Position numbers and translations under genes: made by a program. This document shows, in pieces, positions 1,940 to 61,300 of a DNA stretch of 64,000 bases. The number at the start of each line of letters is the position of its first letter. Within the stretch, counting starts at the first letter, position 1. Below the pieces are notes generated by a model that was not told where the DNA came from, ran no database searches, and worked only from the letters and a program-made list of their open reading frames with translations. This stretch comes from Amoebophrya sp. A120 (taxonomy: Eukaryota > Protista > Dinoflagellata): assembly GCA_905178155.1 (NCBI GenBank), contig CAJINV010000002.1:8810225-8874224 (forward strand). Direction: 5' to 3'.

Positions 1940-2745
1940 GTTTGTGCTTTTAAGGAGGAACACTGCAGGTCCAAATCAACAGAATGAGGAGAAATAACTG
2001 CAGCTATTGTAAAGGCGAAATTTTATTCCTTGCTCTCGAGGACAATAATGCGCGTCTTTCTAAACCTAAAATCGTATTGTAAACTACTTCCGTTCCTGCG
2101 TCGATGTACAAAAGCGAATGGGCACCAACAGGATAACACGTGTTCCAGAGAGGTTTTGATGCTTGCAAGCGCGAAGCGGAAAGAAATGGCGATCGATTAT
2201 CAGCTGGTCAGCTAATTCTTCATCGATCCTGAGCTCGCCCCGTGCAGCGATAATTTTTGCGTTTCGCTAGTTCCAACACAATCCAGGGTATCTTCAGAGA
2301 CAGAGAGCTGCAGTATGCAAAAAGAATTCGAGAGCTTGATGCGCTTGCCTGTGAACATCGGTCTTCATCATCCTTGTTCCTCCAGATTGGAGGGCGTGGA
2401 AGAAGGGTTGCAGGTGGCATTTTCAATTGCCTGCAAATGAAAAAGTCGGGGGGGAAAGTACGGTTTCTAAGTACTTTCATACCTATGATGGGCAAGTATG
2501 TTTTTCGACTTGGACAGATAGCAGCATCAACACTGCTTTTTCTGCTGGTACGGTTTTTGCAATCACAAAGCTCTTTACTGGAGGAACATTGGTATGCAAA
2601 AGCAAAAGTAGTTGTCATGTGCATATAGCTTGCTTATCATCCAGTCGGGCGATTACCGTGCGGAGTTTTCTTTTTTTTCTGATACACGAGAAATCGCCAT
2701 CAATATGAGTAGAATCGATAGGGGTGGAATTCGCTTAGTTATCAG

Positions 2746-2797
2746 TTAGAGGTACACAAAATACATATTTTTCTTCATACTTAAAAATTTTATATGC
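2746..2797 (+). repeat. Left terminal inverted repeat of the giant element
   Basis: TTAGAGGTACACAAAATACATATTTTTCTTCATACTTAAAAATTTTATATGC. Confidence 0.8.
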
Positions 2798-3522
2798 GCG
2801 GAAATTATATATATTATCACGATCGGAAATAGATACAAGTGGCCGATATGTTGTACGAATTTATTATCATTGGAACGACTAGAGCAGTACTTGGTGCGGT
2901 TTTGACCTTGTAACTGATCAGGTGCCGAGCTTGATGCTATTTTTTCACGACCGACTACGATAGATCTCTACGTCGTTGCTTGAGCTTCATGATCCTTGCA
3001 CTTTCTATGAACGCGGCACATAATTAAGCGTTTTTTTTACGAGGATGCGGCCCCCTGCGATATCTACAACTAACAGCCTAGTGCTTTTTGACTCAAGATC
3101 TGTGCTGCTGCGCACAACCATCGAGAAAAGGCTTGCAAGACGGAGAAATTATATAAGTTAATGCACCAGCACGAAGCGCGATGGCATTTCGACAGCGGAT
3201 ATCTTCCCACCGCTGCGGGATGCGTTTATTTTTTTTACTTTTCAGTTGTGCTGTCAGCTGGGTGCACATCATTTTTGTTGTGAATTTACTACACTGAAGT
3301 TGACTGCTATGCTTTCGCAACACAGAAAGCGGATACAACATGCCTCGAAGCAACGCAGAGTAGTGCTTTTGTTGATGTGTCGATGTGGATGCGATCAAGC
3401 TAACTACGGAGTAGAAATTACATCACGCAAGACAATATCAAAAATAATACTACTTCTTGTGTTCTTGAAAGTGAAGTTTTTTTTGCATTACAAATCTGCA
3501 TGTTAATCCGAGCGAAAAAAAT

Positions 3523-6500
3523 CTACCCAAAAAGTTGCTTGTCGTTTACGGGGTCAATATCAAATTCGAAGCTATCGTCATTCAGCTCGAGGCTATCGCT
3601 TTTCGTTTTAGTATAAGTGAACTTTTGCGGCAAGCGTGGCAATTTCTTTTCGGTGATTCGGTCACTTTCCGCACAATTGCAGAGGGTATTATCACTTTCC
3701 CTGGCTCTTGCTTTTGCGGTAAGAATCGCGCAATTGAAAAGATCATCGCTACTTATTTCTTCACAAGTCAAATCTGAGCCAGTGTATAACTTTCCCCCTC
3801 TCCACCAACCACAAAAACACCTTCCCAACTCCGCGGCCCCATCCGGAACGCGGTGCGACATGGGGCCCAGTTGCACTGTCCTCCAGTTAGACTTTTGCAT
3901 TTCTCGGTAGGTGAGGCACGGCCCGCCGCCGGAAATAAAAGTTTTCTTGTAGATGATGATGTTTTTCTTGCACTTAGAGCATTCGCCGTTGTACTCTTTT
4001 TGGTGGTACTGCTTGTGCAGTTTGACGAGGTCGAGCTCCTTATGAAAAACGTCACTTGCGGCATCGACCTGCTTCTTCCACTTTCCACCCGCGTACTTGT
4101 TTCGATATTGTTGCAGCTCTTGTTCAAATTTCAGTTGCCCCTCGGATTTCGGCTCCTTCCGCACAGTGTCAGCAGTATGGATGCTAATTCGCGCCTACAA
4201 ACAAGCCAGGTCATATAGTTGAAGCTCAGAGCCGTACATAAAAAAACTGGATGGCTACAGTTTGTCACGCGTGCAATGACTGCTGCGGTTTCATTTGTAG
4301 GCGGAATTTATTAGATATTTCAAATCAGGCAGCGGCTGCGGATTCTGCTGGTGCGGTTCGTCTTGCACCGCCTGTAAAATATTGGAAAAAATTATAAACC
4401 GCACAAGGAGCGATCCATGCATGAGAAATCAGTCTGCTAATCGGGTCACAGCGAGAGCATTACACTGGGTGCACAAAATAGTTAGTACCTCTCTGTCTGC
4501 CACAACCTGCTTGCCAGCTGCTCCAAAAAGTCCAATCGCTCCTTCCAGAACCTTCTTCTCGTTCACTTTGATCTGGTCCGGGAGCATATTCTCTTCCTGA
4601 GTAGGCTCTTTAGCTTTCTTCGCGTTGTACTCGTCGATTTTCAGCCGGGCGTAGAACTGGATGTCGCTAGTCTTCTTGTCTATTTTTGCTTGCTCCATCT
4701 CGTCGGATAATTTTTTGTAAAAAGCCTTGATTGACATGCTCATCGTGCTGGCAACGCCGGTCGCGACGGCTTCATTTTTGTAGCACCCCTGCTTGACCAA
4801 GATCTTCTCGCCGTCCACTTCACCGAACATCATGCAAAACATAATGTCCCGCCAATGCTCGATCTGGTCTATTTGCTTCTCGACCCGCCGGAAAAAAACC
4901 ATCATCTGGTCCTTGGAGAATTCTTTTTCCTCCTTTTTCGGTCTGGTTTGCCACTCGTCAACTGCTGCAGTCGGTTTCTGTTGGCTTAGAATTTGCATCT
5001 CGGTAATGCCTTCCGGGGCATCAAAAAAAATTCCGTCCAGCATCTTCTTTTTCTCGCTGCTCGTCTTTTTATTTCCTTGGCGGGTCATGTGCTGAAACCT
5101 GACGTCCACCCGATAGTCTTGTAAGTCGCCAACAACCGAATCCGTGTTATTCTGCAGCGAGGAGTCATTTTGTTGTTGGTCATCTACCTTGGAGTTGTGG
5201 TGTGTGGAATTTTCTTCAAATACGTCCCACAAACGCTCCTCCCGTTCTTTCACACTGTTGTAGTCCAGCTTCCTCCAAAATTCGTATGGTTCGAAACACT
5301 GCCGCCCATCCATGTCCGGGCGAAAGTTGATGATTCTTCGGGGTTCGTCCTGAAACAAGAACTCGCATGTTTTCTTCACGTCCGCTTGCTTGGAACTTTT
5401 TGCGCCCGTAGGATTTGGAAGAACACCGTACCCGGCCTCGATCGCAGCCTGCAACGGAGTAAGCTGCTCCGTGTCAAAAAACCAGCAAATTCTGCAGCGA
5501 GACTTGTTCAGGATTCTGTACCGCGCGTCTCTGACGACCCGGATTTCTTGAAAATGCCCCGAGGTGCACATATCAATGCGCGAGGAGGTGATGAGCAAGC
5601 ATTTCAGCCGAGATTTCGTGGACATGGCGTGGGTTGGAAACGGAAGCGCCCAATTCCAATGCTCGTCTGGGTACTCGAACTCCGCGACGTTGCCAGCGTG
5701 TTTGTCATTTTCGTACTTCTTGGTCACGTCACCGCTGTAAGGTGACTCGAAACACCGGGCAAAACCTGAAGGCATCACATATTTACACTTTTAAAAAATT
5801 ATTGGCATGAAATTGCTGCTCGTTTTGCGCATTTTGGACGAACGTAAGCTGCTGCACAGGATTCAGCTGCAGATCAAATGCACAACCATAGGACACACGC
5901 ATAAACAATTATACTTGTACTAGATGCACACTTTTATAAGCAAGCATGGCGCGCAGCATCCCGCAATTGAATTTCAAAAATACCTCTCCACTTTCCCACA
6001 GCCTCGCCGCTGATCACCCGTGTGCTCCTCTGGAACTCTTGGTGTGCTTTCGGCAGGCGACCCGTAGCGGGTTGGTTAGGATCGGGCTCGTCAGATCCAG
6101 TTGCTTGGCCCTCTCCAAAATGCACTGCGTGGGGATCTAAAATATCCGCTTCCCGCAACACGACTACTACCAAGACCTGCAGGCTCAAATTGACGGACAG
6201 CACCTGGACAATGCGGGATCTCTTGTGGTAGAGGTAAATTTCCAGGCAGAGTGGTTTTCCTGCTTCGGTGTAGGCGTGGAGGAGAAAAAATAAGTACAGA
6301 CACTGGAGTCTGCCTCGCTGGCAGGCAGTTTGGTACTCTTCGGCTCCCTGGCAGATGTCGGTATGATGCTCGTCGATTATCGCCTCACAAACGCGGCGCT
6401 CGTGGAGACGCATGGTAGCGCACTTGTGATTTAGAAACTCTTTTACTTCAGCTTCCGACATTCCGTGTTTTGCGTGGTCCAAGTTCATGAATTGCTTCAA

Positions 6501-9500
6501 TTCTGGCAGGGCTTCCGCCAACTCGGGGTACTCGGTGTGCTGCTGGAGATTTCTTTGCAACTGCGGTTTCGGGTCGTTGTTCCACGCCGTGTTCTGTATT
6601 TTCATCATGTAGAGCATGCGCACGATGTCACTGGGTTTGCGAAGCGTGGCCATATTTTCGAACTCCGTGCCGTCCGGCCACAAATATTCGCGGCATTTAT
6701 CATAGTCGACGTCGGGCTCGTTTTCCAGCAACTGCCGGCCGTCCAAGACACTGTTGCTGTCCATGCAGCCTTTCCGTGTATAGAGCGTGGAAACAGGATC
6801 GTATGCTCGAAAACACGGCACCCAGGTCGGAAGACAAGACTCCTGCAACGCGTACTGGGTGCACTGTTTGATTGTTGTTTCAATGTGTGTCATTTGTCAT
6901 GCATAAAACGCAAGTCATTTTGCATTTCGGATTCGCAAAAAAAAATCAATATCTGCATTTTGGTACCTGCTGTAAAATCCCAGAGTTGTTGCCGCGACGC
7001 GACGTCCTGGAGAGAATGCCGCCGTACGCTTCTATACCCCGCGTACTGGGTATCATTACCGCCGGAAATTGTTCCAAAAAACTTTTCGCTTGTTCCGCCC
7101 CCTCCTTCTCATAAACTATTAACCACTTCCGGATGAGCCAACTATTCTCCATCTTCCCGAGTCCTGCGATCAGCTTACTGGCGATGGGATTTTTCCGCAG
7201 CCCCTTGACCTCCAAGATTTTCTCGAAAAGCTGGAGCTCGAACTTGTGCGAGCCCATGATCGCTCGATCGCGAAAGTGTGTGTAGCAAGCGGCCTTCGTC
7301 GTAGCAGTCTTTGTTGCCTGGATCGCGGATACTTCCTCCTCTTCCAAAAAATGGTACGGAGAACTTTCCAGGAATGCGAGGAAAGAGCGGTGCTGTTGCT
7401 TCAGGTAAAAATCCCGATCGCGACAAATTTCGGCAACTGAAGACTTCCACCCCTGGAGGTCGGATGGCAAATGCGCAAAATCCTCAAGCGTGAGGTCCAA
7501 CCCGGGCTTCATCCCGTAAAGTAACATTCTCTTTTCCATTGAGAGGCGGAGTTGCTGGGTTTTCACGGCCTTTTGCAATACCTGTTTTGTATTAGAACAT
7601 TATTTTTTTTGATGCAGTCGCGAAATAGAGATATTAACGGCCGCAGTGCCCTGATTGTGTATCGCCAGCAAAATGCAAAGCAATTTTCTTAGCATGAAAC
7701 TGCAGTAGTATAACCATAAACGTGTGCGCTTTGCATGACAAAAGCATGATCATCTGTACCCAGAAGAACCCCGCTCCGTAGGTTTCCGCAAATTTGTCCT
7801 CTTGATTCATCCGGAGAGATCGGCGAAGATCGTTTTCGAAGTGGGAATTGGACAAAAACGCCGTGTCCGCTAGCATGCTTGGAGACTGGCTGTAAAAACC
7901 CGCCCGCTGGTTCAAATTCACCCAGCCGATGGCTATGGTGGCCCCATGATAATACAGGGGTGCTCTTTTGCACAGTTCGCATATTAACGCCGCCATCCGA
8001 ATGCTTTCGTCAGCAAGTGTTGCACAGATGGAAACAATCGTGTTCGGATCGTCATCCGGGCCGAGTTTGGTCAGAGTTTCTTCCATCATGTTTCTCCCCT
8101 CCTGTTCCTTCCGCTCCCTTTTTCTCTCATCTAATTCCGTTATCCAGCTTGCAACGTCCCAAAAACCGTCTTGCTTGACCTTGTCGTCTAGCTCCTGCAC
8201 CTCGTCGTGAAAACTCCACACGGCCTTTTCCCTTCTTTTCGTGTTTGGTAGTTTGGCTTTGTTATGTCTGTTCTCGTCATCATCATCGGACTCGGAGTCG
8301 GTTTCAGCGTCGGCTTTGTCGATTGCTGATGTAATTTTGAATTCAAAATTTGAAAACAATTACGAAAGGCCTTACATTTGAAAACTTTGCATGACAAAAC
8401 CATCGGCGAACTACAGATGCAAAAAACAAAAAGTGCTTTTCTCTCTTTCCACTCCTGACCGCTTTTTGTCTTTGAACTGTAGCTTGTTGCAGGATTGGGC
8501 TAGGACGTAATCCAGTTCGAGTTTCTTCCACATGATTAACGAAGGCCTCCCATCTTTCGCAGCAGTTACAAAAATCTCCGAGTCGAGGGCCTTGCGATTT
8601 GGATTCTCGATGTAGAGAAAGCACCGGAATGCGAACCGCAACGTCGTCCACCCTGTTTTCGCGAAAAAACAAGTATAATCCATCTGGCAGAACCGCTCCT
8701 TGCTACTGAAGTTTCCCAATTGCGAGCGGATGAGTTTGCACCGAATCCTCACCGCATCTGCAAAATCCGGACTATCGTACGAGCAGTTGATTTCCGCCTC
8801 CAGATCCTCCCTGAACTCGCCGACCAGTCTGATGATGTCGTTGTCGTCGCAAGATTCGATGACCGCTGTGTAGAAATCGCCAAACTTTATGGAGTGTTTT
8901 CCTTTCGCCGTACTCCTCAGCCTGTAGAGGCGCTTCATCTTCACCGGCAGCATTTTCTCCGCAATTTTGATGGATTGCCGGTTCTCGTCGTGCGGGACGT
9001 CCCAATTGCAAATCGAGGGGCAGTATGAAAGTTAAAGACTCAGATACACATTTCAAAAATCGATCACCGTCGTATTTGTCATGCAGGTTTTCTAGTAGTG
9101 TCGCGCAAACATATATCTGAATCATTTTCACAAGATAAATCCCCGCGCTCAGCGCGCCACTGCGGGTAGGAATTCGCCGAACACTTGTCCATTGTGAAGA
9201 CCGTCGGGATGTCCACTCCAAGCCGGCCCCAATTCGTCAGGAAGGAAATGATCTCCAACAAGGCCGACAGCCAACAGCTGTATTTTTTTTGCTGGTAGGT
9301 GTAGTTGTAATCGGCGGTGTCAAGTTTTTTCAGGAACTTTTGGATATCCTGAAAAGAACCTTCCGGAAGCGCGACGAGCAGCATGCTCAGCGTGAACGCC
9401 TCATCAAGCGTGTCAAACAAAAACCCGCGAATTCGACTTTGAACAAACTCTCGTCCACCTAACCGCACGCCATCCAAGGCGCATCCCACTGCGTGTCCGT

Positions 9501-10082
9501 ACCGGGTATTCATCATCGCGTTGACCTTGATCACCTGCAGAATCCAGCAAACATAACCCAAGACCAGCATTTGTCGTGCTTTTTCCAGATGCTGCGTGAA
9601 GAGCGGGCTGTACGGCACGGCGCACATGGAGATGTGATGAGCGAATGGTAGTTGTTTTCTCCCTGCTTCTGCAATGGTGATAATTACGGGCGTGCGGTCC
9701 TGCAGCTGGTATCCTGAGGTAGAGTGATTTTTTTGAAATATTGCATGACAAATTGCGGAATGTCATTTCACGCAAGTTTATGCATGGCAAAAATCTAAGT
9801 ACCTAATCCCGGACGTTCTTGTGCGTCCCACATTTCGACAATGCGCCCGCACCACTGATTGAAATACTCCGCCATAGTTTCGATGCCCTGATTCAAATTT
9901 TAAGGTCAGCACTGTTTGTCATGCAGATTTCAGTAATCGTGAACAGTCAATATGCATAATCACGCGGACAATAAAAAGCATGCATTTGCTATGCGCAGCG
10001 CCATCAAATAATACTCGCGTCGTCCCATGTTGCAGAAGCCAACCGACAAATTGCTCAGAGGAGAAGTCGACTGTGGGTGTAT
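3523..10082 (-). CDS. Multi-exon DDE transposase-like protein (hAT/P/Kolobok-type RNase H fold), ~1,800 aa; 5' end unresolved
   Basis: Motifs occur in the expected order: CALDG (D at 9472-9474), TMDKCSAN (D at 9187-9189), WDVPH (8990-9001), KERF (~8695) and IPSTRGIEAY (E at 7030-7032). In-frame joins were checked at introns 8326-8454 (GA-AG) and 7582-7759, 6864-6966, 5766-5983, 4372-4488 (GT-AG). Joins near 9030-9130 and 4190-4310 are inferred. Confidence 0.6.
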
Positions 10083-10467
10083 CTGATAAGAAGACTATAA
10101 AGATGCGAAATATTTTCCGACACGCCGAGAAAGGTGCAACAAACTAAAATCGCCAAAATATGACATGCGTTTTTTGGTACAACATAGATGCTTCGAATTT
10201 GTTGGCTTCTTTTGCGCAACACGGTTTTTATTTCCGGACGGACAAATTCGAAACAGTCCTGCCGTCGAATTGTTTCTGCTAAAGTACGCGCAGCTCAAAA
10301 AAGACAAAACGATGCGCAAATCGACAATAAACAACTCAAACGCGAACAATCGCTGTGAGCTAGCTTTTTTGTGCAATTTTGGATGTGCCACTTCTATGCG
10401 CAAGTATCATGCGCGATCAAAGTGCAGCGACGCTGCGTGCAATCATGATGCTGGAGCGCGAAGTAAA

Positions 10468-10541
10468 AGCTCCACGCTCGAGCTCCACGCTCGAGCGTGG
10501 AGCTCGAACGTGGAGCTCGAACGTGGAGCTCGAGCGTGGAG
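10468..10541. repeat. Palindromic array of 13-bp units (CTCGARCGTGGAG)
   Basis: Two units in one orientation are followed by four in the other. 10468-10517 is a loop-less 50-bp palindrome with 24/25 arm match. Confidence 0.9.
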
Positions 10542-10594
10542 GTCCAACTTGGAGCATACTTGTGTATTCTGACGTGCGAAGTTCTGCTGTGTGT

Positions 10595-10810
10595 GATGCT
10601 CAAAAATATGCTCTTTGTTATGCTCAAAAAGTGACTACCTTTTTGACTACCCAAAAATTTCTTAGACCCCACGGCGCGCTCTCTGTTTGCGCGCTCAAAA
10701 TTATGCTTGTTTTTATGCTCAAAATTATGCTTTTTCTTATGCTCAGAATTATGCTCAATCATCGCGCTCTCGCGAGAAGAGCAAGCTCGACGCCTTAGCG
10801 TGATGCTCAA
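10595..10810. repeat. Degenerate ~12-bp-period TATGCT(C) repeats
   Basis: Example: TTATGCTTGTTTTTATGCTCAAAATTATGCTTTTTCTTATGCTCAGAATTATGCTC. Confidence 0.75.
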
Positions 10811-11338
10811 ACGCGGAGATTGATCAAGCAGAGAAGCCTAAAACTACCAAAAGCGGAAGTGCTCGAAAAACCTAAAATGGATTTCGGATTTAGGCTTTCG
10901 CGAAGCCCCCTTTTTTTAAAATGCAGCTTCTTAAAGGCCGCGCTCTTTTACCCATCTTGAATGCGCGCATAAAATTGCAGCGCAGACCTCCAGCTCGCTG
11001 CCGTCCACAGCAAATAAGCACGTGATCCGCATCAAATACAGCATCAACGCTGCGGCGCTTTTCGGCAAAAAGGCTGCTCCCCAAGAGGATTAATAAGCTC
11101 TGGGCATTGTGGCATCAAAATACCATAACACATGTAGAAGGATTGCTACAATAACAAGTATTACACGCTTTTGGCATGATTTGCGCAACAAAAACACTAC
11201 TAAAAAAAGGTAAATATGTACTCGCTTTGCCTGTGAAGGTTATCATCCCGGACATGTGGGCTATGCTAATGAAACGTCGCAGCTTCACCTTGAATGTAGA
11301 TGCTGCGATAAATAACTGTGTTGCTTTACCATACAAAG

Positions 11339-11983
11339 CTACTGCATCCATTCAAGGCAGAACTGCGAGCTACATTTCTTAAACAGACCTTGCATCTGTT
11401 CGACAGGCACAACCTGCCCGAGAAACACGTCCCGAAACACATCTGCTTGGTAGTTGCAGGCGACCAGCGGCTTGATCAGCAGCTCGGCGAAGATTGCGGC
11501 AAACTGCGCCGTCGTATGCTCCAACTTTTTCTTCACACGATTGCTCTGCTCCTCTTTGAAGTACTTCTTACACCGGCCGTTGATCAACATGAAGAACGCG
11601 TCCATCGTCAGCAAATCGGGACCGTCTGACCCTTCCGGAATCATAACCCACTGCTGTTTTTTTGCGGTCTCGGATTGCCCTTGTCGCTGCACGAGGCAGG
11701 TGTGCGTTTCGTTTTTGAAAATCTCCAGCATCAGGGTCAATGCTTTCCCACGGAGCGTGTACTGCTGCAAGAAGTCCTTCTTCGGATGGTCTTGCCACTC
11801 GTCCCGAGTACAGTTGCGAAGGTCCGTGATGGTTTTTACAAAGTGCTCCAGCGGAACACCTAGCAACAGCTCATTGACAGCGATCAAAGGCACGTCTGTC
11901 AACGCCGTTGCCTCAATGTCGATGTCGACGGGGGAAGACCCCGCAAACGACGCCAGTCGTTCCATTTTAATTCTTTTTTTCAC
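11339..11983 (-). CDS. Orphan exon/ORF inside the element; either a separate gene or the N-terminal part of the transposase
   Basis: 214-codon ORF with protein-like composition on the transposase strand. No family recognised. Confidence 0.5.
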   Translation of the reverse strand: MKKRIKMERLASFAGSSPVDIDIEATALTDVPLIAVNELLLGVPLEHFVKTITDLRNCTRDEWQDHPKKDFLQQYTLRGKALTLMLEIFKNETHTCLVQRQGQSETAKKQQWVMIPEGSDGPDLLTMDAFFMLINGRCKKYFKEEQSNRVKKKLEHTTAQFAAIFAELLIKPLVACNYQADVFRDVFLGQVVPVEQMQGLFKKCSSQFCLEWMQ

Positions 11984-12751
11984 ACTACATCTTTCAAATT
12001 ATTCTATCTCTCAGCTTTTTCTATATCGGATAACAGATGCACTCGTCATAAGAAATTTTTTGGTTCGAAAAATACTTTTTGACATAACAAACAAACACAG
12101 CAAATCACTTCAGTAGTTTCATCACCATCGCACTTTCAATTTCACAGCGTATATTTATTCCCAGATATCGAAAAAACATTTTGGACCAAAGAGAACAACG
12201 ATGCTTTGCACTACATTCATTTTTAAACTCTTTTACATCGTGTCCAGTTGCGTTTCCCCAGAAAAAAGCAATAATATGGCCCCAGCAAACTTGTCTGCTA
12301 CCGCTGCAGTCAGTGTTTGCATATAGCAGGAACAGAAAACTCCTGGCTTCATTGATGAAAAAATCAATGGTCTTCGGGACAAATGACAGACAACTAGATT
12401 GTGCAAACTGAGAAAAAGTTTACTTTATCTAGCGTGGATATGGAAAGGCAATCTATGCATTTTTTCCCAAAAAAATTCATTAATTGATACTATTTATTTC
12501 GAGCAGAGCCCCTTCATCATACAAGAAAATGAAATTCAATAATTTTTTACACAGTTGTGAACTACAACTGCTGCTTCGAAATAAAAGTTTTACAAAAAAT
12601 TGTACACGACGTGCAACAAAAAGGCGAAGGAGTTCACTTATATAAAAGTAAGACGATTAATAAGGAACTCGACTTCTAGTCATCTGCTGGCACTCACGCT
12701 TGCCCTACTTGGTGGTCTAATTCTTGTTCTAGAATTACTTGACTCCCTTGA

Positions 12752-15438
12752 CTAGATCAACTCATCCTCAGCAGCATCACTGCTTCCATCATCCATCGTG
12801 ACGAACGGCACCTCGGTACCATCGGCCAGGGTCACGGTCGGAATCTGGGGGTTCAAGATGTCCTCGATTTCTTCTTCCGGAATCTCCTGTTCGACAGCGG
12901 TGCAGTCCATGACTTCCGATCCGTCGTCCAGCAACGTGGAGATCTGTTCCAAGGCGGCGATGGGCACGCCACGGGCGGCGTTCTCGACCATGGAGACGTT
13001 CAGGTCGACGCGGACCGTCGAGGGAACTTGCGCTTCCCCAGCAGTAGTACTCATAGTGCGGCGGCGCTTCGTGTCCGGCTCAGCAATCACTTCTTCGTCC
13101 ACCTCCATCGGAGCGGCGGTAGACTCAGAACCACTGGCAACCGCAGCGGGCGCAGACGTGGCGTTGGAGATGATACCAGTGGGGGCCGCGGCCACGGGGA
13201 CAGAGGTGGTCGTCACAGGCACGTTAACGTTGGTGGGCTGCGCCAACATCGGGGTGACCGGAGGAGCCGGCTTGGCCACCTTCGGCAAGGACTTCTTCTT
13301 GAAACCGCTGCTCTTCGGGGCAGAACCGGCCTTGCTCACGACCGAGGCGGCACGCTGACCCGCTGTTTAGTTTTTGTTTGTAAATTGACAATTATCAAGC
13401 ATGATGAGTCTTTGCATCTTATCATGCACCAAAAGCAAAAAAAACTACCTTGATTCGGTTCGTCGGTCGGCAACAACGTCTGGATTCCAGACGTTGTTGC
13501 CGACCGACACTGGATCGAGGCGGGCTTGGCCTTGGACGGCGGAGCAGCTTTTGTTCGAATATTGATTATATTGCAATCGATCACAATCGTGCTCGCATCA
13601 AAACCAGTTCTGCATGACAAAAACATTATACCCTTCTGCTTCGGCTGCACATTCGCACCAAGGGATCCTTGCGAAAACAACAACCGCTGCGGCTCAATGG
13701 CGTTGTTGGAAGACGGGGTGTGAAACAGTCCTCCAAACGCAGACCCCATGGTCGAATCGACGTTCTGTTCGGCATTCGGGTCCAGCGGCGGCTGCGATTG
13801 CAGATCGGGAGACAAGGACGCCTGCGCCGCCATCTCGGTCTGCACGGTCTCCTTAATGCCGGCCATCAACTTCGACTCCATCTGCACCATACTGGTCTGC
13901 ATCAGGTTCTGCATCATCGCCAACAAGGCCTGCTGGTCGAGACCTGAGTATAATATTTTATGATAATACGCATGGTATAAAATGGCAAGCGATCACTTTT
14001 CAACACAAACTAAAAAAAATTATACCCAGTCCCGCACCCGCGGCTGCAGCAGCAGGAGCTTTCGCCACCGGAGCTTTCGCCTTCACCACCGGAGTAGCAG
14101 CAGCTTTCACCTTCGGATTAGCAGCAGGCGGCGCTGCCACCGGCGCTGCCGCAGCAGCAGCCGCAGCGTCCGGCATCGGCGTGTCGTCGACGGCAGCAGC
14201 AGCCGCACCAGCAGCTGGCTGCTCACCACCTTCTTGTCCCTCCTGCGGCAAAAATTCGGCGTCCATGATCACGTCGTTCTGCGGGGCGGCTCCCAAAGGA
14301 AGTTGACCACGGCGACCACGGCCGGCGATTCGTTCGGGGCTGGCCAAGGTGAACTCACCCAAACCATACATCGTCGGCTGGTACGTGGTCGTGTACAAAT
14401 ATGCAATGCAAATTTCAACACCGACCATCAGAGGCACTACGACAATACCGTATCAAATACATTACCTAGACACAACACACACAAACACAACATGCGTACT
14501 GTTTCTCATATTTCCACGCAAAGCCTCTCAGTCGGTGTATAGTTTTCAAAGGCATATTTCTCCCCACAACATGGCGATCTCCTCGTCCGACATGTCCGGG
14601 TCGTAGAACTTGTGCAAAGTGGTGAACCACAGCTCCAAAATGCGACGCTCAGACGCAGTTTGCAGCGGTTCGAGCACACGGACAACCTGAAGCAAGTTTT
14701 TAAGTGAAGGCTTGTATAATTTCGAGATTGCATCCACCATGTCGCATGCTGATTAAAAAAAAGCAATAATTTCTGTACCTCCAACCAGGATTCGCGGTAG
14801 CTGCACGTGATGCGGGCGGTCGCGGCGTGGATCAACAAGTTTATGCTATGAAAAATCGCACACAAAGCAACCTAAACGCAAGCACTCTCTTCGCATCACA
14901 GAATTTTTTATGCATAAAGCAGGACATTTTTTCAATCTGAAGACCGGTGCTCATCATGCAAAAATTTGCTTTGCGTAAGCAGCAGGTTTCTGCCACTTCG
15001 TGGGAAGTTCCCAAGTTGCGGGGGGCTGGGAATCCTGCAGATCATGAACACGGCCAGAAGGAGCCTCGCGGCAGACGTGCAGGTGTACTGGATCTCGCCG
15101 ATCTGTGGGTGATTTAATGTGTATTTCAAATGAGATAATAAAACGCGCAAGAATTTCATATACATATCTATGATGCTGTGCAAAAAAAAAACAAACATTT
15201 ATACCTCGACGGAGTCCTGGACGGCGACCAGGAGGCATTTCGTCAACATTGAAAGAGCAAGTTGAACCCACGCCCGGCTTACTTGGCCACTGCCAGTATT
15301 TAATAAGGTAGAAGCCACACCTCCACTGCGGGATCTCACCGTGGAGGTTTCGATCAGATTGCCCCGCGGCGGAGGGTTGCGCTCGTTGTTGTTCTGGCCA
15401 TTGCCATTGCCGGCATTGCCAGCGTTGTTATTCTGCAT
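12752..15438 (-). CDS. Multi-exon orphan cargo protein of the element, with a helical N-terminal part and an Ala/Pro-rich, acidic, probably disordered C-terminus
   Basis: A chain of GC-rich exons (MQNNNAG..., IGEIQYTC..., MVDAISKL..., YQPTMYGL..., QQALLAMMQ..., SKAGSAPK...DELI*) is separated by short AT-rich introns. Confidence 0.6.
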
Positions 15439-16271
15439 TTTGAAGTTGTGGCTTGAACTGCTGATCGCAGACAAGAAGACTTTTTTCGCTCACACTCAGC
15501 TACGGTTTTTGATTGAAAAGAGAATTTGTGATGCGCGGATGAAAAAATTGCTGTCTTTTGAAATCTCGAAGCCACAAATAAAAAATGAAGTTGCTCAACA
15601 ACAATTACACACTACAAAAGTACCCAATTGAATTACTACAATAATGCTATATGATCTCTATGGGGAGAAGTGCAAATGTCTATTTGGAAATTGCTGAGGG
15701 GATCCCGCATTATCGTCTTGTTTTGAAAGTACAACTCTCGAGATTATGTGTGATGTGTGGAAACAGAAACTCACGCTACGGGGACACACACTAAAACACT
15801 CAAAAAATATCTATCACAGACACGCTTCGCATTGCACTTTTTTCACAGAAACAAACTCTTTCTATTGTCATGAACGCAGCTCTAGTGAAAAAACGCACAG
15901 ACCTTTGCTCTGCAATACATCTCCACACTCCAACGCAAAAAAACGCAACTCAATTTATGCAGTGGAGTCTTGTGCTTTAGATTGGTTGAACGTACGGAAA
16001 TTCTCAACACGGTGGGGCTTAGTTTTGGATAAGTGAGAAAGTGTTGCTTCGGCTACACAAAATTTGCAGAACTATGGAGCTGTAGTTGGAGATTGATGAT
16101 CGTTTTCCGCATATCTTTCAAGCATTGCTTTGTGGAACACAATCATCAGAAAAGTTATGAAGTCGTATGGCTGGTTCTGCCACAGGTCAAGCACACATCG
16201 CCGCAGGTGCAAATTTTTGAAATCGCAAAGGTATTACGACGCTCACGCATACAAGTAAAAGCGCTGCAAAT

Positions 16272-17406
16272 TTACTTGATTATGTTCAGTAGAGAGCTTT
16301 CGATCGTTTGCAAAGCGTTCTGTCGCATCAAGGGCAAGATCATTTTCACTTTTCGAGCATCTTTTTCATTTTCCCATAAGCCCTCAGCTTCAGACGTTTT
16401 CTTCAAAAAAATCAAGTAGTAATTCCAGTTTGCGAATCTTTCACTATCGCCAGGGAAGCTCCGCACTGCTGGAAAGTACAGAAGCTGCACGTCCAAAACC
16501 ATCATCTGTATCAACGTAAAGATCTTGAAGTCCATCTTCAAGAAGCGGCGGCTCTCGATGATCTTCATCAAGTTGATCAGCTTTTCGGGATTGTCGCGGA
16601 CGGAATGCCACTCCTCAAACGATGCAAATGAAAAAACAAAATCAGTCACTAGCTGATGGTGCTAAATTTTTCGCAAATCGGTTTTTTAAAATTTCCAAGC
16701 ATCACACACTGCATAAATGCGATGCGCATTACAAACATGCAAACCGCAATGGTTTTGATTTTGTGTCTTCAAGCCATACAAGGAAGAAGTCGAAGCTGAG
16801 CTGCAAGTTGGTCAGCTCGGCGGATGGACCACGGTGATGATGGCCTCCACGGCGATACTCGATGACTTCGGGTGCAAGGCGAATGAGGTCTCCAACGTGG
16901 AATTTTGGACGCCATGTACGCGAGCCATACTTCCCATCCGGCGGCAAGAAGAAGCACTCCATCTTGAACAACAAAACTGCTATGATGCTCTGTGCTCTTG
17001 TGCTCTATGCACACTTTGTCAACTACAAAACGAAGGCAATATCAAAACACTTGGTCAAGTCGCAGTATGTGAGGCGCACGCTCCGAAATGCCTGAAGTCA
17101 CTTCATCAATTTTGCCGCCTGAAATTTTACATCAAAACCTCTAGCAGATCTTAGAACAGATCATCGGCGCGTCATCTTGTCTTTGAAAATTGAATGACTC
17201 TGTCATGCATAAACGCAGATCTTTTGCAGCAAAAGCACAAAGCCGTCGTGCGAGCCTGGTGGGCGGTCTTCTTCAACAAGATGGCTGGCATTACCTGGGT
17301 GAGTAGTAATTTGTGGATCAGCACTGCATTGCATGAATTCTATTTGATTTTGCTCGTCATTCGCTCTCTCAATGTGAAACACAAGCACAACAGCAAAATG
17401 GCTCAA
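16272..17406 (-). CDS. Multi-exon orphan cargo gene; ends uncertain
   Basis: Protein-like exons at 17203-17406, 16729-16974 and 16272-16649 are separated by AT-rich gaps. Confidence 0.4.
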
Positions 17407-17690
17407 GCTGTATCGAAGTCAGCGAGCTGGGCAGGGCGGATTACTCACTCATACTTTTACAGCGCGGCGCCTGTACAATGACCAGTCGGTGCGCGGTCAG
17501 TCCAGCTCGACCAGAGCTGCTTCCGTGTATCCACGCAATGGACTCCATATAAGATCGGCCCCCTGCTTCAGGCAGGAGGCTGGTACTGTAATCGCGGACC
17601 GCGACCAATACTGGCGCGCCATTTGAAAGGCGCGCAATATGCCGAGCCCGCCAATGGGGCCCGGCGGGGCATTGGCCCCAGTTGGTAAGA

Positions 17691-18045
17691 TGCTACAGCT
17701 GCAAGCAAGGAAGCGCCGAAACTTTTCGCGAACAACCGGAAGGCTTCGGCGTCCCGTTTTTCCGCGATCGGCGCCGAGGAGCTCGTAAACGGACTCCGGA
17801 GACGCCGCGGCGCAGGCACGGGACAGCTGCTTCAGGCCGTCCTCCGTCACAAGGCAGCTTGCAAACCTGTGACGTGTGCCAGCGCCCGGGAGCGGGAAGT
17901 TTTTTGCATGACGCCGGAAGCCCTTCAGGAACATCCGGATCTGCGTCTTTCCGTTCCCGCGCGTTGTACCGGGCGCACGCGCTCCTCACTCACTCCTTCT
18001 TTTCCAAGGAGGTGAAGAGGCGGGCCCGGGCTCGCAGCTGTAGCA
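17691..18045. mobile_element. Nested GC-rich TIR element (MITE/introner-like) inside the giant element
   Basis: TGCTACAGCTGCAAGC (17691-17706) matches the reverse complement of 18030-18045 at 15/16. AAGA is directly repeated at 17687-17690 and 18046-18049. Confidence 0.55.
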
Positions 18046-18571
18046 AAGAAGGCGCGGAAGCGCCGCCCGAAAAGGGCGCACCACTATGGTGCCACACAGA
18101 AGCTAGTTTCTTTATTGGAAATGGTTTCTCGCCTTCGCTCCGCCAGCTCCTCTCGCTTGTCTCTCCCTCCCCTCTTGCTTTTTATTATTCAAAAAAAAAC
18201 CTCTATACTCAGGACCTGTAAGACGCCTCCGGACTGCATTGAAAAACTTCGGGTCTGCCGCGCTTCATCAGTTGCGAGTCCGTGCTGCGCAAATCGATGC
18301 CGCCTTCGCTGGAACAACCTGGCTAATATGCGTAGCGAAATATTTCCACGCCACATCTACTTATCAACTTCTATAATTATTTTCGCTAGGAATACGTCAA
18401 TGCAAATTCGAGATGGTAACTAATGCAATCGCTTTCATTTATATCTACCCTCTACCACATATAGAGTTGCCATTCATTTTTTCCAAGAGTTGGCCATGTA
18501 TAAATTCCACGGCAGCCATTTTATCATGCAACGGTGCATATGTATGGTTTTTTTTCCGCGCTTGCGCTAGT

Positions 18572-18623
18572 GCATATGAAATTTTTAAGTATGTTCTTGA
18601 GTATGTATTTCGTGTAGCCTTAA
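18572..18623 (-). repeat. Right terminal inverted repeat of the giant element
   Basis: The reverse complement reads TTAAGGCTACACGAAATACATACTCAAGAACATACTTAAAAATTTCATATGC. Confidence 0.8.
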
Positions 18624-19179
18624 ATCAGCAAATATGAAATTGTGGACAGCTCCTAGAAAGCGATCTCACATCATTTGCTTTTCCTCTACTGACTTTGCAC
18701 CATGATGGTTCTTGTTGTATTTCCGACTGTTAACAGGATTGTATAGCAACGATTTGGGGGGAATAATATTACGATAACGATAAAGCGATATCAATTCATG
18801 TCTAAAAAAAGGCTCTATGTGCTGCAATTCCTAGTACGGAAATGATCAGTAGGGTTCAAAACTCTCGGAGGTTCGACGAAGGCAAGGATTTTCAAGCGCT
18901 CTAGAACAGCGCATCAAGCTTTATCCGGCAAAGCCGTACTTTTGATGCGCCGGAGGTGTTGTTCGGCCTTCGGAGGTTCTACGAGACAGATAAAACTTTG
19001 GTCTAACGATTGTACAAATTGCCCGCTTTTTTTCCAAAACCGAAAAAAGATCGTCTTTTTTCTCTTTTCCGCGACATATTTGATTCTACACTAGGTTAGA
19101 AACTACGTAGACGTACACATGTACGAATAACTCCAATAAATATCTTCCATTCTACAAAAAATAGCAAGTACGTTCATTT

Positions 19180-19779
19180 TTACAGCAACAATCCCATTCC
19201 CAAGCCGAGGGCCAATCCGCCCACCATGGCGCCCGGCACCGGGTCATAGTAGCCGTACGGGTAGCCATAGCCGTAGCCGTACGGGCGGCCGTAGTACCCG
19301 CCATAGGGATAGGGACGGGCGTACACCACCTGCGGGGGCGGCTGCTGCACCACCACCGTGGTTGGTTGCTGCGGTTGCTGCACCACAACAGGCCTGGAAG
19401 CCTGTTGCTGCACCTGGGGCTGCGGGGCCGTGCTGACTTGACGCCTGCGTCCCTGCGACACCGATTCGACCTTGAGCTTGTCGCTCTGGCCGGGCGCAAG
19501 CTTCTCCCCGGGCTTGAGCTTCAGCTGATCGCCTTTATTCAACCGGACGACCTTTTTGGAACCGTCCTTGCGGATAATGGTGACGTCGATCGGCGCGGGC
19601 TTGCTTTCGGATTGTTGTTGAGAATTCCGGGAAGGGGTCGGAACCGGAGGGTCAACCGGAGCCTTGGAAGACCGCGGAGCCGCGGGCTCAATGGTCTGTG
19701 GGTAGGAGGAAATTTCCGGCATTTTGTGTGTGGCGGTCTCTTCTTGCGGAGCCTTTTGCTTGCTCTGCTTGTTTCCCAT
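19180..19779 (-). CDS. Small Pro/Gly/Tyr-rich protein with a possible N-myristoylation motif (MGNKQS) and a C-terminal Gly-zipper hydrophobic tail; paralog A
   Basis: Intact 199-aa ORF that shares a ~40-aa domain and the tail with 27147-28180. Confidence 0.8.
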   Translation of the reverse strand: MGNKQSKQKAPQEETATHKMPEISSYPQTIEPAAPRSSKAPVDPPVPTPSRNSQQQSESKPAPIDVTIIRKDGSKKVVRLNKGDQLKLKPGEKLAPGQSDKLKVESVSQGRRRQVSTAPQPQVQQQASRPVVVQQPQQPTTVVVQQPPPQVVYARPYPYGGYYGRPYGYGYGYPYGYYDPVPGAMVGGLALGLGMGLLL

Positions 19780-31216: not shown

Positions 31217-33117
31217 TCAAAATGTTTGCCCCGGCTTGTTGACCTGAAAGCGCACGTCGCCTTTTTCAAAGAAGTCCACGATTTGCTTAGCCGCAGCGAT
31301 GCCGGCGTTGTTGTTTGCCTCCGACGTCTGCGCTCCCATCTTCTTTTTGGTGACAAAACACCTCTTCTTGCTAGCGTTGAGTTGTTCCATGTCAAAGGTT
31401 GGGGCGACGTCAGAGATGTAGGAAAGATCAGCACCTGATAGAGGAAACAATCAGACACAATATTGATTCGAATCTGCTGCAAAAGAAAACCTATTTCATA
31501 CTTTTCTGCATCACCAGCTGCCACTCTGCTAAGTGTAAGCGCGTACAGCGATGAAGAAAAGTGCAAAGTAAACACAATGAATTGCTAGGTTTCAAGTACG
31601 TTCCGCGAACGCCTCCAGCAGTCCTGCTTCGTGGACAACCTCGGCTCGAGCGGTATTGACCAAAACCCCGTTCTTTGGCATTTTTAGCAGGAAATCCTTT
31701 CCAATCGATTCCTTCGTTTCCGGAGTGCAGGGAATGTGGAGGGAAACAAAGTTCGCGTCGAAAAGTTCTGCTACCTGATATGATAATTATGACCCGGCTG
31801 TACTTTTTAGCAGGTCCCTATTTGCTGTCGTGCGCGGCGCGCGACCATTTTTTCTGCGTCTGATCCTGATACAAAGAACAAGAAGATTTATTGCGCAAGG
31901 AAAAACACAGACAATCTTGCGTTTCTTGTGACCAAAAGTCCGATACCGACCCCACTGGCACTGCGCCGGCACTTTCAATGTCTTCCTTCTTCAAAAAAGG
32001 GTCGTATGCCAGCACTTTCATTTCGATATCCTGTGTAAAAACGTCCCCACACCATAGTTGTCATGCAACTCTGCATGCTTAAAATGTTTCTCATGCGGAG
32101 CCCCACGAGAAGCATTTTCTAATGCGGTTTTGAAATTTGTCATGCTCCAATCAGCATGAGCTACTAGACCTGTAATGCTGCTGAACTAGCTCAAACAGCA
32201 CTACACTACGCGTCCAAATTTGTCATGCGCAGCAATCAAAGCTGTGGGATTTGTTTAGCAGATTTCCCATGTTGACTCTGGTGTGGGGACGTTTTTACAC
32301 AGGATATTCGAAGCCCTTCGCCAATCGGAACATGTTCCTCGCTACCTGCCCGAACCCGTGCAGGGCCAGCGTCTTGCCCTGAATAAATTGGAGAGTTTTC
32401 TCTTTATCAAAAGCTGGCGCAGCACGGTACTAATCAGCAGCCAAGGCAACAGCAGCGAGGACTCCACATAAAAAATAGCATGCACCCTGAAGATGATCTT
32501 AATGCCTTTAAACAAAAAACACCCTTCGCCCCTCCTTCTTACCTTCAACTCGTAGCCAGAGCTTCCGTCGTAGTGGTTTCTGATTTGTGTGATCATCATG
32601 CCAAAGGCAAGCTCAGCCACCGCATTCGAGTTCTGCCCCGGTGTATTCATAACGACCATACCTTGAAACATTTTTCGTACCTCTGTCTGGTGCAGCTAAA
32701 AATTTATCAGCAGCGCGCTCGTGATGGACCAGCTCTGTTGCAATAATTGAAAGAAACCGTGCCGAAGTCGCTGGTCCTTTTGCCACAGCACATGGCATTA
32801 GCAAGCACTACTTCTTTTCGCCTCTATTTACCTCTTTCGGTCGCCGCATTTAGGTCAATCGTGTCGACCCCGGCTCCCGCCCGGACGATGAGCTTCAGCG
32901 AATCCTTGCAGGCGTCCATAATTTCGGCCGTCATTTTGTCGGACCTCACGATCGCAGCTTCGGACTTTGCCAATGCGGTTTTGAGCTCTCCCACATCCTT
33001 GTAGTTTTCCAACTTTTCCAGCGTGTAACCCGCATGCTTCAGCACATCGTCGATCTGGGCCACCGCCGGGCCGGCGAAAGGCTTTTCCGTAGCCAGCAGA
33101 ACGGAGTGGGCCGGCAT
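31217..33117 (-). CDS. PHGDH: D-3-phosphoglycerate dehydrogenase, short type IIIK (Lys in place of the catalytic His), six exons
   Basis: Motifs IVRSD, IVRAGAGVDTID, NTPGQNSNAVAEL, GKTLALHGFGQVA, AYDPF, SLHIP, LVNTAR and TKKKMGAQT. Introns 32662-32831, 32379-32542, 31775-31946 and 31435-31599 are GT-AG; one non-canonical intron lies at ~32022-32306. Confidence 0.9.
32027..32306. mobile_element. TIR introner (non-canonical intron) in PHGDH
   Basis: Perfect 28-bp TIR TATCCTGTGTAAAAACGTCCCCACACCA with TTCGA duplicated (32022-32026, 32307-32311). Removal restores KGFEMKV. Confidence 0.93.
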
Positions 33118-58395: not shown

Positions 58396-61300
58396 TTACT
58401 TTTCCTCGGAAGTAGCCGCACCACCACCACTTCCACGCATCGCCCCCCACGCCTTCCGGATCTCGTCGACCCCAGACTGATACTTTTCCATTAGCCATGC
58501 CTTGGCGGACGCAAGCCTGTTGCCGACGGACGCTGCCTTGTCGCCCAGGGTGAAAATTATCGCACGAAAAAGGTTTTTCACTGAGGTCGTTCACTTTCTA
58601 ACATCTGCAACATTACAAAAACTTTACAGTGAAACAGTTTTTTCTTGCGATAAAAATGTTCTCGACGCCAACAAATTTGACTGCCTTGCGGATCATTCCC
58701 ATCCTCCATGAATCCGGATCGAGGTGGTCGAATTTCTTCAGTACCATGGGTTCGAGGAACTGCTCCCGGAACACGGCCACGTCTTTGTCCGGCAGGACCT
58801 ATTCTCGGCAAAAGTATCGCACTCTTCGTACTAATTGCTGTACAGCATGACAGGTCTGGTTTCACCATATCTTCAGTCGGGTCCCCACCTAGAAGTTCAG
58901 CATTACAAGTTGAACCTTCCTCCTTCTGAAGAAATTCGTAAATGCAGTTTCTCGTACCACCACTACGACCTAGTGCGATACTATTGCAATGCATAGGACC
59001 TCCTTCATTCGATGCGCTATGCGCGCAAACTCCCCGGGCGGCGACATGGTTTCTTCGGCGGACGACGTCTTATCCAAGAAAAAAGTGTGTAAAAAGTGCA
59101 AGAAAGACTAATGAAAGTAAGTAAGTCTGTGCTGTAGAAAATGCAAGACATCAGTCGAGCTTGTTGTGGTATCGCCTTTCCGTCAGACTCTCTTTTCATA
59201 TCTACTTGCACTAGTGCCGTGGGTGTCGTCCGGTCGTGACCGTCCGATAGATGCCCATGGCCCATGGCAAACCTTCTGTGTCATCCGTGAAGACGCTGCT
59301 GATCGAACAGAGTACACTATTAACACAGCTTTCCTCCTGGATACGTGAGTACCTCGATGTACAAGTCCAGGATTAGCTCCGCCCCTGGCCTAGGAAAAGC
59401 CTTCCTGAAGACCTCACTTTCTTTCCCGAACGCGTACAGCATTGAGTGCTGCAAGTTCAGGTAGCCGGTAATCCACCGCTTCGTGAAGGCGGTGGACCAC
59501 TTCAGGAACTCGGCGAACTGCTCGAACTGGTCGTAATTTTTCATCACAATTCCGAAGGCCGCAAGCTGCACTTCCGCGACCAGGTTCGGAAGAGTGGTGG
59601 TGGTGGTCGTCGTCGAGGTCGTGACTCCTGCATGCAGAAACGAGGAACCGGAACTGATCTTCGACATCCCCTGGTCCTCTCCAAAGAGAAAGAAGTCTTC
59701 GAACTGCAGCAGCGGAAACAAAGGACTAACACCAGGCGCTGCCTGCTTTTCTTCGTTGCGGTCCGCCGCAGCAGTGCGCGACACTTCACGTTCCGAGGTA
59801 GCGAGGAAGGATGAACTGCTGCTCCTGCTCTTCTCGTCGTCGTACGTAGCGAAAGTACTAGAGGACATCATGGACAAAGAAGTCGGCGCCGCACCAGTAT
59901 TTTTTGCTCCACTACTCGCCTGGAGCTGCTGCTCGCGCTCCAGCTGCAGAGTTTGATGTTCATACTGAACAAAAGAAACTTGACCCATAGTCGCGTTGGT
60001 GTCTTCCGTATCATGGAAAAACTGCTGGGACAAAAACGAGCTTGCTGCACCTCCTGGCTGGTGAAAGTCGAGCCACTTCCGGAGCCCCTTGTCTGCCTCC
60101 GCGAACACACTTGCCACCACTGCCTTCTTTCGTTCCTGCCAGACTGCCGGGTCGTTCTCGGTTGGGTTCGGCGACACGGCCAGGAACTTCGTACCCAGGT
60201 TGGGCTCGACTTTCTCCCGCCACAGGTTCCAGCGCGCCTCCTCGTCCGGCGACCCGTCGGGTTTTCGCAGCAGCGTGCCCTCCAGAAACGCGATAGAAAG
60301 CCGCATGATGCGCGCACAGAGGTAGAAACGCGGTGGCAAATCCGCCGAGATACCGAAGTCGATGAAGGAAAACTCGCCCGTGTACCTCGCGTCGTCCCCA
60401 CCGTCGAGGTCCTTTCCGTCGGCCCACAGAATGTTTCCAAGGTGCGGGTCGCCGTGCAGGAAGCCCGACCTCTCGTTGCCAGTTGGGCAGGCCTGCCGCT
60501 GCCACAGTTTGAACGCCGCCAGGTACGCCGCCATGGCGTCCGGCCAGTCGGTTACGGTGTCCACGGTCTTGGCTGGCGGGGTAGTGGACTGCGTGCGGTC
60601 TTCGGTGGTGGCCGCGAGCTGACGGTTGCGAAGGTTGAAATAGGTGTCGCCGCGCGCCCGGCCCAGCACCAGCACCGCGGAGGAGTTGAGAAGCACTTCG
60701 GGCACGGTGATGTGCAGCGGTTTATCCCGGTGGAGTTTGTCGCTCTTGTGAAAGGCGTGCGACTTGTATATGGCCTCCTCAGTTGCTTTTTACATCATTC
60801 TGTCAGCTGTAGTTACATACCCGCCAACGTTTTTTATTGTGGCACACCAGCTAGAGCTGCAGCAAAGGGAGACACTGACACGCACACGCTGTGCCGTTCG
60901 CATGACAAGTTTTGGAAAAATCTTGATGCTATGTATTTGAGGCATCCATCTCTATCTCAGATTTTTTGTGATGCGAAGCTATATGAGAACGGGAAAACAC
61001 GACGTCGCGCAGATTTTAAATGACAAATGGATTGGCCAGCATGTAGCAGTTGAGACGTCGAGTGTAATATCTTCACCTGAGGAGGCCATATTGTAGCGGT
61101 GCCGGCCCATCTCGTAGGCCTCCTTTTCGCCGGAGAAATCGAACTCGTCGCGCGAAGAGTACACCATGTTGTCCAGCAAATACTTTTTCCCGGCGGTAGT
61201 GAGACCAAAAATGTTCGCACTCTCGACGTAGGCAGCCTCCGCCTCGAATTTCCCCTCCACGCCGGACCGCAGGACCTTTGCGAAGGCGTTCTCCGGGGCC

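Follow-up and report, generated by a model that had tools for sequence, protein, structure and literature searches.

A 15.9-kb candidate DNA transposon with a predicted Hermes-like transposase in the dinoflagellate Amoebophrya sp. A120

A C/DxxH motif between the second aspartate and the glutamate of the catalytic triad is described as a mark of the transposase superfamilies hAT, P, MuDR and Kolobok as well as Dada (PMC9587614). In the hAT transposase Hermes the histidine of this motif is reported to contact the scissile phosphate (PMC7780238), and a BED finger to bind subterminal repeats (PMC10368747). According to PMC7789003, the introners of Amoebophrya have inverted repeats of 8-20 nt and direct repeats of 3-5 nt (5 bp in the legend of an example figure), the inverted repeats beginning with TTA and two purines in A25 and with TAT, seven bases and AAA in A120, and they make up 8-17% of those genomes. 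The introners fall into 252 families in A25 and 1,954 in A120. A Repbase domain search in the same source (Farhat et al. 2021, PMC7789003) detected two putative transposases, both of them in strain A25, whereas A120 had none. Its authors conclude that the near-absence of transposases rules out a general mobilisation of introners by transposases. Some A120 introners have already been assigned to "diverse TIR DNA transposons" (PMC12130899). Here we analyse a stretch of 64,000 nucleotides from Amoebophrya sp. A120 (contig CAJINV010000002.1, positions 8,810,225 to 8,874,224), referred to as the window. It carries an element of 15.9 kb that has terminal inverted repeats (TIRs) plus a large transposase-like gene, which is likely to be a cut-and-paste DNA transposon of autonomous type, belonging to a hAT-like lineage that is unclassified.

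The element is 15,878 bp long without its target-site duplications (TSDs) and is bounded by TIRs of 52 nt. The left TIR (2746..2797, plus strand) reads TTAGAGG and so begins with TTA and two purines (TTAGA), while the right TIR (18572..18623, minus strand) begins with TTAAG on that strand and reads TTAAGGC. The arms match ungapped at 40 of 52 positions, compared with 8 of 52 for the next 52 bases inward. Bases 1-22000 were shuffled in blocks 25 times with their composition preserved, and inverted matches of 52 nt then reached 32-36 at best. Exact copies of ATCAG (2741..2745 and 18624..18628) abut the outer edges of the two arms; this is the longest flanking repeat over every boundary offset within ±8 that was tested, and the probability that a 5-mer agrees by chance across a fixed boundary is 0.0011. 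Both the repeats, with TTA at either end, and the 5-bp TSD had been proposed in an earlier note made from the letters of the window, and they hold up at the exact arm edges. Five of the 12 arm mismatches represent one 5-nt micro-inversion (TTCTT/AAGAA, arm positions 26-30).

It could be argued that the inverted repeat and the TSD have nothing to do with the gene between them, either because they match by chance or because two small elements bracket a set of host genes. The termini are indeed known from a single copy, and short elements with inverted repeats abound in the genome. However, the match exceeds that of every shuffle, the TSD lies at the exact edge, neither arm pairs with any other partner in the window, and a gene with a transposase fold lies between the arms, so that we give this explanation almost no weight. 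The ends and the duplication go beyond chance, and the element is real.

More than half of the element, 8.4 of 15.9 kb, is spanned by one transposase-like gene (3523..11965, minus strand), for which a provisional model with 11 exons and 1,991 aa without an internal stop could be built. Exons 1-4 lie at 11965-11374, 10094-10015, 9887-9803 and 9713-9139, exons 5-8 at 9019-8455, 8325-7760, 7581-6967 and 6863-5984, and exons 9-11 at 5765-4489, 4371-4303 and 4194-3523. The open reading frames (ORFs) concerned are exons of one gene because tblastn matches of related proteins run collinearly through them, from 11923 down to 3553. All eight exons tested have an in-frame codon bias like that of host genes. 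The ten introns comprise seven of GT-AG type, one GA-AG, one GC-AG and one that is non-canonical. With an earlier choice of junctions, the protein scored 872 bits on a profile of its family.

The non-canonical junction belongs to intron 4, which separates D428 from the DxxH motif. The intron is a worn introner-type element (9024..9137, minus strand; TAT-N7-AAA ... TTT-N7-ATA), the TSD of which is no longer recognisable. Excision of the element together with 5 nt yields R-G-D-P-S-I-C-N-W-D and thereby restores an RGDP motif that is also found in the two nearest relatives, which explains the odd junction.

The earlier note had seen an interior of same-strand, intron-containing orphan genes and had taken the element to be cargo-carrying. 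Minus-strand orientation, introns and the lack of matches in the libraries stand, but the supposed genes are mostly exons of the single large gene. Their common orientation is also not diagnostic, as 14 of the 18 ORFs of at least 300 aa in the whole window lie on the minus strand; unidirectional gene clusters have been reported for Amoebophrya genomes (PMC7789003). Given the share of the transposase-like gene, the interior is not mostly cargo, and the two further genes, which are without known relatives, may be either captured from the host or native accessory genes.

The protein family was retrieved with phmmer, using the exon at 8450-9028 against 1.84 billion representative sequences with a cut-off of E≤0.001. 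Of the 19 matches, 18 are true relatives, whereas P0015, a repeat protein without relation to the family, was discarded. Accessions of family matches include CAD7951862.1, CAD7976820.1, CAD7965913.1 and CAD7935635.1. Thirteen relatives are named Amoebophrya genes (nine from AT5.2, four from A25) and five are without names. For three of the nameless ones, the 90% cluster also contains an additional AT5.2 gene, which brings the totals to at least 12 different AT5.2 genes and four A25 genes. The search lists representatives only, and all relatives that bear names are from Amoebophrya. The A25 genes are annotated as "unnamed protein product". Identity to the window protein is about 21-29%, and pairwise identity across the family ranges from 17 to 55%. 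In the tree the window protein groups with two AT5.2 genes (support 98/99), but it sits on a long branch (1.7) and its place is therefore unsure. Many divergent paralogues, with a dozen deep ones per genome, represent the multi-family pattern that is typical of transposons. The gene numbers of two distant members of the family, P0009 and P0017 (AT5.2 genes g1908 and g1913), differ by only five, a closeness that points to insertions in a cluster or nested in one another.

Conservation of residues was analysed in 16 rows of more than 800 aa, namely the window model and 15 proteins from databases. All 16 have D333, D428 and D451-x-x-H454, and all 15 that reach that far have E1005. The first and second aspartates are separated by 93-102 residues, the second aspartate and DxxH by 23-25, and the histidine and the glutamate by 429-599. 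Within the last interval, the site R553-F554 is R-W, R-F or R-L in 15 of 16 rows and K-W in the remaining one; this pair is the putative counterpart of R318-W319 of Hermes. The core is followed by about 950 residues, at the end of which there is a cluster of conserved cysteines and histidines (C1840, C1843, H1882, C1894, C1896, C1923, C1940, C1942) that probably binds zinc. A CxxC upstream of the first aspartate occurs in none of the 16 rows, including nine with at least 230 residues in that region, and thus there is no BED finger. An OTU/Ulp1 protease that had been spotted by eye in exon 8 was dropped, as it has no conserved cysteine.

DxxH is also found in Kolobok transposases, and the earlier note had pointed to an alternative Kolobok-like parse of the ends. 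The element would then have TTAG/TTAA as its TSD and RR...YY termini starting from 2750 and 18619, with a DxxH transposase and accessory genes inside. The termini AG.../...CC fit this rule, as is to be expected often by chance, and Kolobok lineages carrying extra genes are described (PMC9587614). No Kolobok chain is present in the lists from the fold searches described below, but these may have been unable to return one. However, the left end is TTAG and not TTAA, and the exact ATCAG pair would be left as a coincidence. Between H454 and E1005 not a single cysteine is conserved in at least 60% of the rows, while a finger is reported there for all Kolobok lineages except Kolobok1 (PMC9587614). 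Other elements in the window make 5-bp TSDs of variable sequence. We therefore regard a Kolobok origin as very unlikely.

No known transposase family was recognised in the sequence libraries tested. None of its members matches Pfam, and for the hAT families Dimer_Tnp_hAT, DUF659 and ZBED1 RNase-like this holds for 18 members up to an E-value of 10; the exons in the window likewise match no hAT family. No interior ORF of the element has a Pfam, NCBIfam or PHROG match above the curated cut-off or at E≤0.001. Sequence profiles found nothing among PDB chains, a word-based protein search with the family alignment returned only the alignment's own first row, and exon 4 of the large gene matched nothing in such a search. 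Named look-alikes in ESM comparisons are mostly hAT/ZBED clusters (0.81-0.82), which we treat as leads only.

The structural comparison was made with an AlphaFold2 model of the relative P0014, not of the window protein (mean predicted local distance difference test, pLDDT, 69; predicted template-modelling score, pTM, 0.67). In this model the first aspartate lies on the first of three strands, the second ends strand 4, and DxxH follows strand 5. An insertion of about 550 residues, made up of helices, lies between DxxH and the helix that bears the glutamate. The top 11 Foldseek rows are all Hermes (best E 5.4e-3). VIA-align of P0014 with Hermes gave Z 10.9 at a root-mean-square deviation (rmsd) of 4.7 over 377 aligned residues, and in a scan of 48,161 chains Hermes was the sole chain with Z≥8 (Z 10.8, rmsd 4.8, 378 aligned, Hermes 139-609). 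The next rows are mostly DDE enzymes, such as ISCth4 (Z 6.9), integrases, Tn5 and the P element (5.4), besides a designed helical protein (7.2). The C-terminal half of another relative, P0019, was modelled separately (pLDDT 65, pTM 0.46). It has no Foldseek match and a best VIA Z of 4.6, which does not by itself establish a new fold; its residues 466-547 gave weak rows for a helix-turn-helix resembling sigma region 4. The family is thus predicted to have an RNase H core with a Hermes-like helical insertion. Together with D, D, E and DxxH, such an architecture is that of the DDE/RNase H group with helical insertion, which comprises hAT, P, MuDR and Kolobok as well as Dada.

We propose a mechanism that is modelled on Hermes. 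The enzyme would bind both TIRs and break both strands at each end, and the histidine of DxxH and the R-W/F pair would assist cleavage. In Hermes, hairpins form on the flanking DNA and the R-W pair has a role. The 3' ends would be joined to the target with a stagger of 5 nt, repair of which would result in the 5-bp duplication. In the 600 nt next to each end of the element, no subterminal repeats are conspicuous. As there is also no BED finger, the N-terminal 330 residues, the C-terminal Cys/His region or the bipartite 52-nt TIR itself would have to serve in end recognition.

It seems possible that the family has a bearing on introners. Both TIRs of the large element begin with TTA and two purines (TTARR), which is the A25 introner motif and occurs at 0.13-0.27% of positions. 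We performed an unbiased scan of the window for elements of 50-700 nt with inverted ends and a 5-bp flank. There were seven matches; four of them are inside or in contact with arrays of repeats at 49 and 63 kb. The remaining three, all outside the large element, are without exception of TAT...ATA type with an exact 5-bp TSD; 12 shuffles yielded 0-2 matches with any start. The first is an introner of 280 nt (32027..32306, TSD TTCGA), and removing it with 5 nt rejoins a frame resembling 2-hydroxyacid dehydrogenases (PF02826, E 0.004, below the cut-off). The second is a candidate intron of 95 nt (58558..58652, TSD AAAAT). The third is an introner of 322 nt (60769..61090, TSD TTGTA), removal of which with 5 nt results in an open frame of 872 aa, compared with at most 594 otherwise. 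The weight of this result rests on the TSD scan, as a scan for TAT-N7-AAA pairs was barely above shuffles (five versus a mean of 1.2, with one of 100 shuffles reaching five).

Since these small elements have the 5-bp duplication in common with the large one, the transposase family may be the overlooked enzyme that spreads them. Their ends are unlike the TIRs of the large element, so that the local introners would need to be moved by a relative of this copy instead. Extending the mechanism further, members of the family would move short TIR introners with 5-bp duplications in trans. A bolder version is that this giant (~2,000-aa) Hermes-fold lineage, of superfamily rank, is the missing engine of introners and that the element is a full-length autonomous member bearing the introner end signature along with the duplication of 5 bp. 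We put this forward tentatively, and would give it somewhat less than an even chance. If this holds, the lineage would have spread the non-canonical introners, numbering tens of thousands, by which splicing in these parasites was reshaped.

Several points weigh against an autonomous transposon of a hAT-like lineage and against its link to introners. The element is seen as a single copy, with arms that differ at 12 of 52 sites (77% alike), and no locus was found when metagenome and viral contigs were scanned for a window exon or for the TRDIE motif. The divergence of the arms and the three introner-type introns inside the element indicate that the insertion is not fresh. The gene model was derived from sequence alone, and its junctions 1, 4, 5 and 10 are provisional. 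The fold comes from the model of a relative, no Foldseek row reaches an E-value of 0.001, and a Z of 10.8 is moderate for a largely helical model. As to introners, the TTARR resemblance was spotted after the fact, there are no small elements of TTARR type in the window at 10 of 13 matches, and the local TAT-type introner ends share no TIR sequence with the large element.

These features raise the question whether the transposase has been domesticated or immobilised, with the ends being relics of an element that no longer moves and the gene, perhaps along with its two smaller neighbours, being kept by the host. Such a scenario would account for the dissimilar TIRs and the introner-type introns, and the codon use of the large gene and its GC content at third codon positions resemble those of host genes. 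The open frame also has to be considered. At a change of 6.5% per site, about 17 stops are expected in the large gene, and none of 500 simulations was free of stops. Two explanations offer themselves: the arms may have differed at the outset, or selection may act on the gene, as it would in an active element as well as in a tamed one. On the other hand, the TSD is exact, all catalytic residues have been kept, and the micro-inversion reduces five mismatches to a single event. Ends of hAT transposons are reported to be naturally asymmetric (PMC10368747), and for the dozen deep paralogues in each genome, transposon families are a better explanation than a single tamed gene. We consider domestication rather improbable and an autonomous-type transposon still the likely explanation.

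The two smaller genes lie upstream of the large gene on the same strand and are probably passengers or accessory genes. ORF2 (12752..15438, minus strand) is a multi-exon orphan of low complexity with an Asn-rich start, an Ala/Pro-rich middle and an acidic end, and its exon model is incomplete. Two of its introns (14400-14556 and 14842-14916, minus strand) have TAT...ATA ends. A near-perfect hairpin (46 of 52 self-matches) is found at 13457-13513, in an apparent exon region of ORF2. ORF3 (16272..~17270, minus strand) is a short multi-exon orphan with uncertain 5' exons and start; its last exon (16272-16631) has in-frame codon bias. That exon found no relatives in a word-based protein search, and there was no usable match in the ESM Atlas. 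The ORF at 17500-17985 was not counted as a gene, as its codon bias is only weak. The element also contains a GC-rich stretch of 355 nt (17691-18045) that has inverted ends of 27 nt (78%) and is flanked by the 4-bp sequence AAGA. This stretch may be a small insertion nested in the element.

The first intron of the large gene (10095..11373, minus strand) is 1.28 kb long and contains a 13-nt palindromic array (~10450-10555) and ATGCTCAAAA repeats. It is possibly a later insertion, although no ends and no duplication were found for the repeat stretch (10450-10820). A motif GCATGA/TCATGC, often as TTTGCATGACAAA or its reverse, recurs in either orientation with roughly one site per intron, in host genes as well as in those of the element. 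There are 61 sites in the window, and nine of the ten introns of the large gene have it. As it is common in host introns too, it was rejected as a feature of the element. It may serve as a signal for splicing or be a remnant of introners; the lineage is reported to be without U1 small nuclear RNA.

The insertion site is flanked by a CCZ1-type longin gene (PF19031, E 1.4e-10) on one side and by a small gene rich in proline on the other. It looks intergenic, since no long frame opened when the flanks of the element were rejoined. The small genes at 19180-19794 and 27147-27755 are similar to each other, with a middle rich in Pro/Gln and an end rich in Tyr-Gly, and the first directly adjoins the element. 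Farther away, tandem paralogues with ABC1/APH kinase-like domains are found at 53973-57308 and 59320-62265, and the second holds the introner at 60769-61090. The region 49088-49767 is non-coding and contains arrays of 15-16 nt repeats as inverted ends with GGTA/GTA termini and a flanking duplication of 9-10 bp (CGAAATTAAT); it looks like a Mutator-type miniature inverted-repeat transposable element. At 63430-64000 two arrays of palindromic units (periods of 54/69 nt and 163 nt) run off the end of the window, possibly representing the end of another element.

A transposase family that has been missed by domain searches, with at least four genes in A25, reopens the question of a transposase-driven spread of introners. 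This is based on the duplication length of introners and on the A25 end motif, and is directly testable. The enzyme would be of hAT type but stretched to three times the usual size, with a C-terminal half that is unexplained. Its sequences can also be used as queries for repeats that are unclassified in genomes of dinoflagellates; for the genome of the K. veneficum parasite, the reported repeats include 8.6 Mb that are unclassified but no DNA transposons (PMC12005148). Our literature search found no paper describing the family; Repbase and the introner classification table of PMC12130899 were outside this search and could hold a description. The suggestion of the earlier note that a large TIR element with a 5-bp TSD represents a new lineage in a dinoflagellate-type genome thus agrees with our analysis, as its DDE enzyme with DxxH belongs to a lineage that no library tested has a name for.

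Comparison with known systems shows resemblances of the element to several described groups. Its features do not fit Transib/CMCT. These are defined by CA...TG termini and by C(2)C and H(3-4)H motifs in the insertion (PMC12730594), while the element has TTA...TAA termini and no conserved cysteine in the insertion. With Kolobok it has in common DxxH, accessory genes and TTAA-like letters at its ends, but it lacks TTAA on both sides and a cysteine finger between DxxH and the glutamate, and has an exact 5-bp duplication outside. Amoebophrya introners resemble it in having TIRs and direct repeats of 3-5 nt and, in A25, in the TTA and two purines found at both of its ends, but they are non-coding and only 0.1-0.3 kb long. 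Subgroups of hAT with TSDs of 5, 6 and 7 bp exist, and hAT5 is placed inside the Blackjack/animal hAT lineage (PMC12730594). A 5-bp TSD on a hAT-type fold is common to hAT5 and the window element. However, hAT5 is recognisable by sequence whereas our family matches no hAT family in Pfam, which makes an affinity to hAT5, whose 5-bp TSD the earlier note had mentioned, unlikely. The identical TSD length is probably convergent.

The best fold match is to hAT/Hermes (PDB 8edg, 6dww, 4d1q). Common characteristics are an RNase H core, as predicted, in which strand 5 is followed by a large insertion of helices, the residues D, D and E, C/DxxH right after the second aspartate, and short imperfect TIRs. 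Hermes has about 610 aa and an insertion of about 300 residues. The family protein is much larger, with about 2,000 aa, an insertion of about 550 residues and about 950 extra C-terminal residues including the Cys/His cluster. It has DxxH in place of CxxH and is devoid of the N-terminal BED finger. We have not filed the element as a member of hAT because neither a BED finger nor a profile match was found. The 5-bp TSD, seen in a single copy, also differs from the usual 8 bp, as does an element of 15.9 kb with two more genes from the typical hAT transposon.

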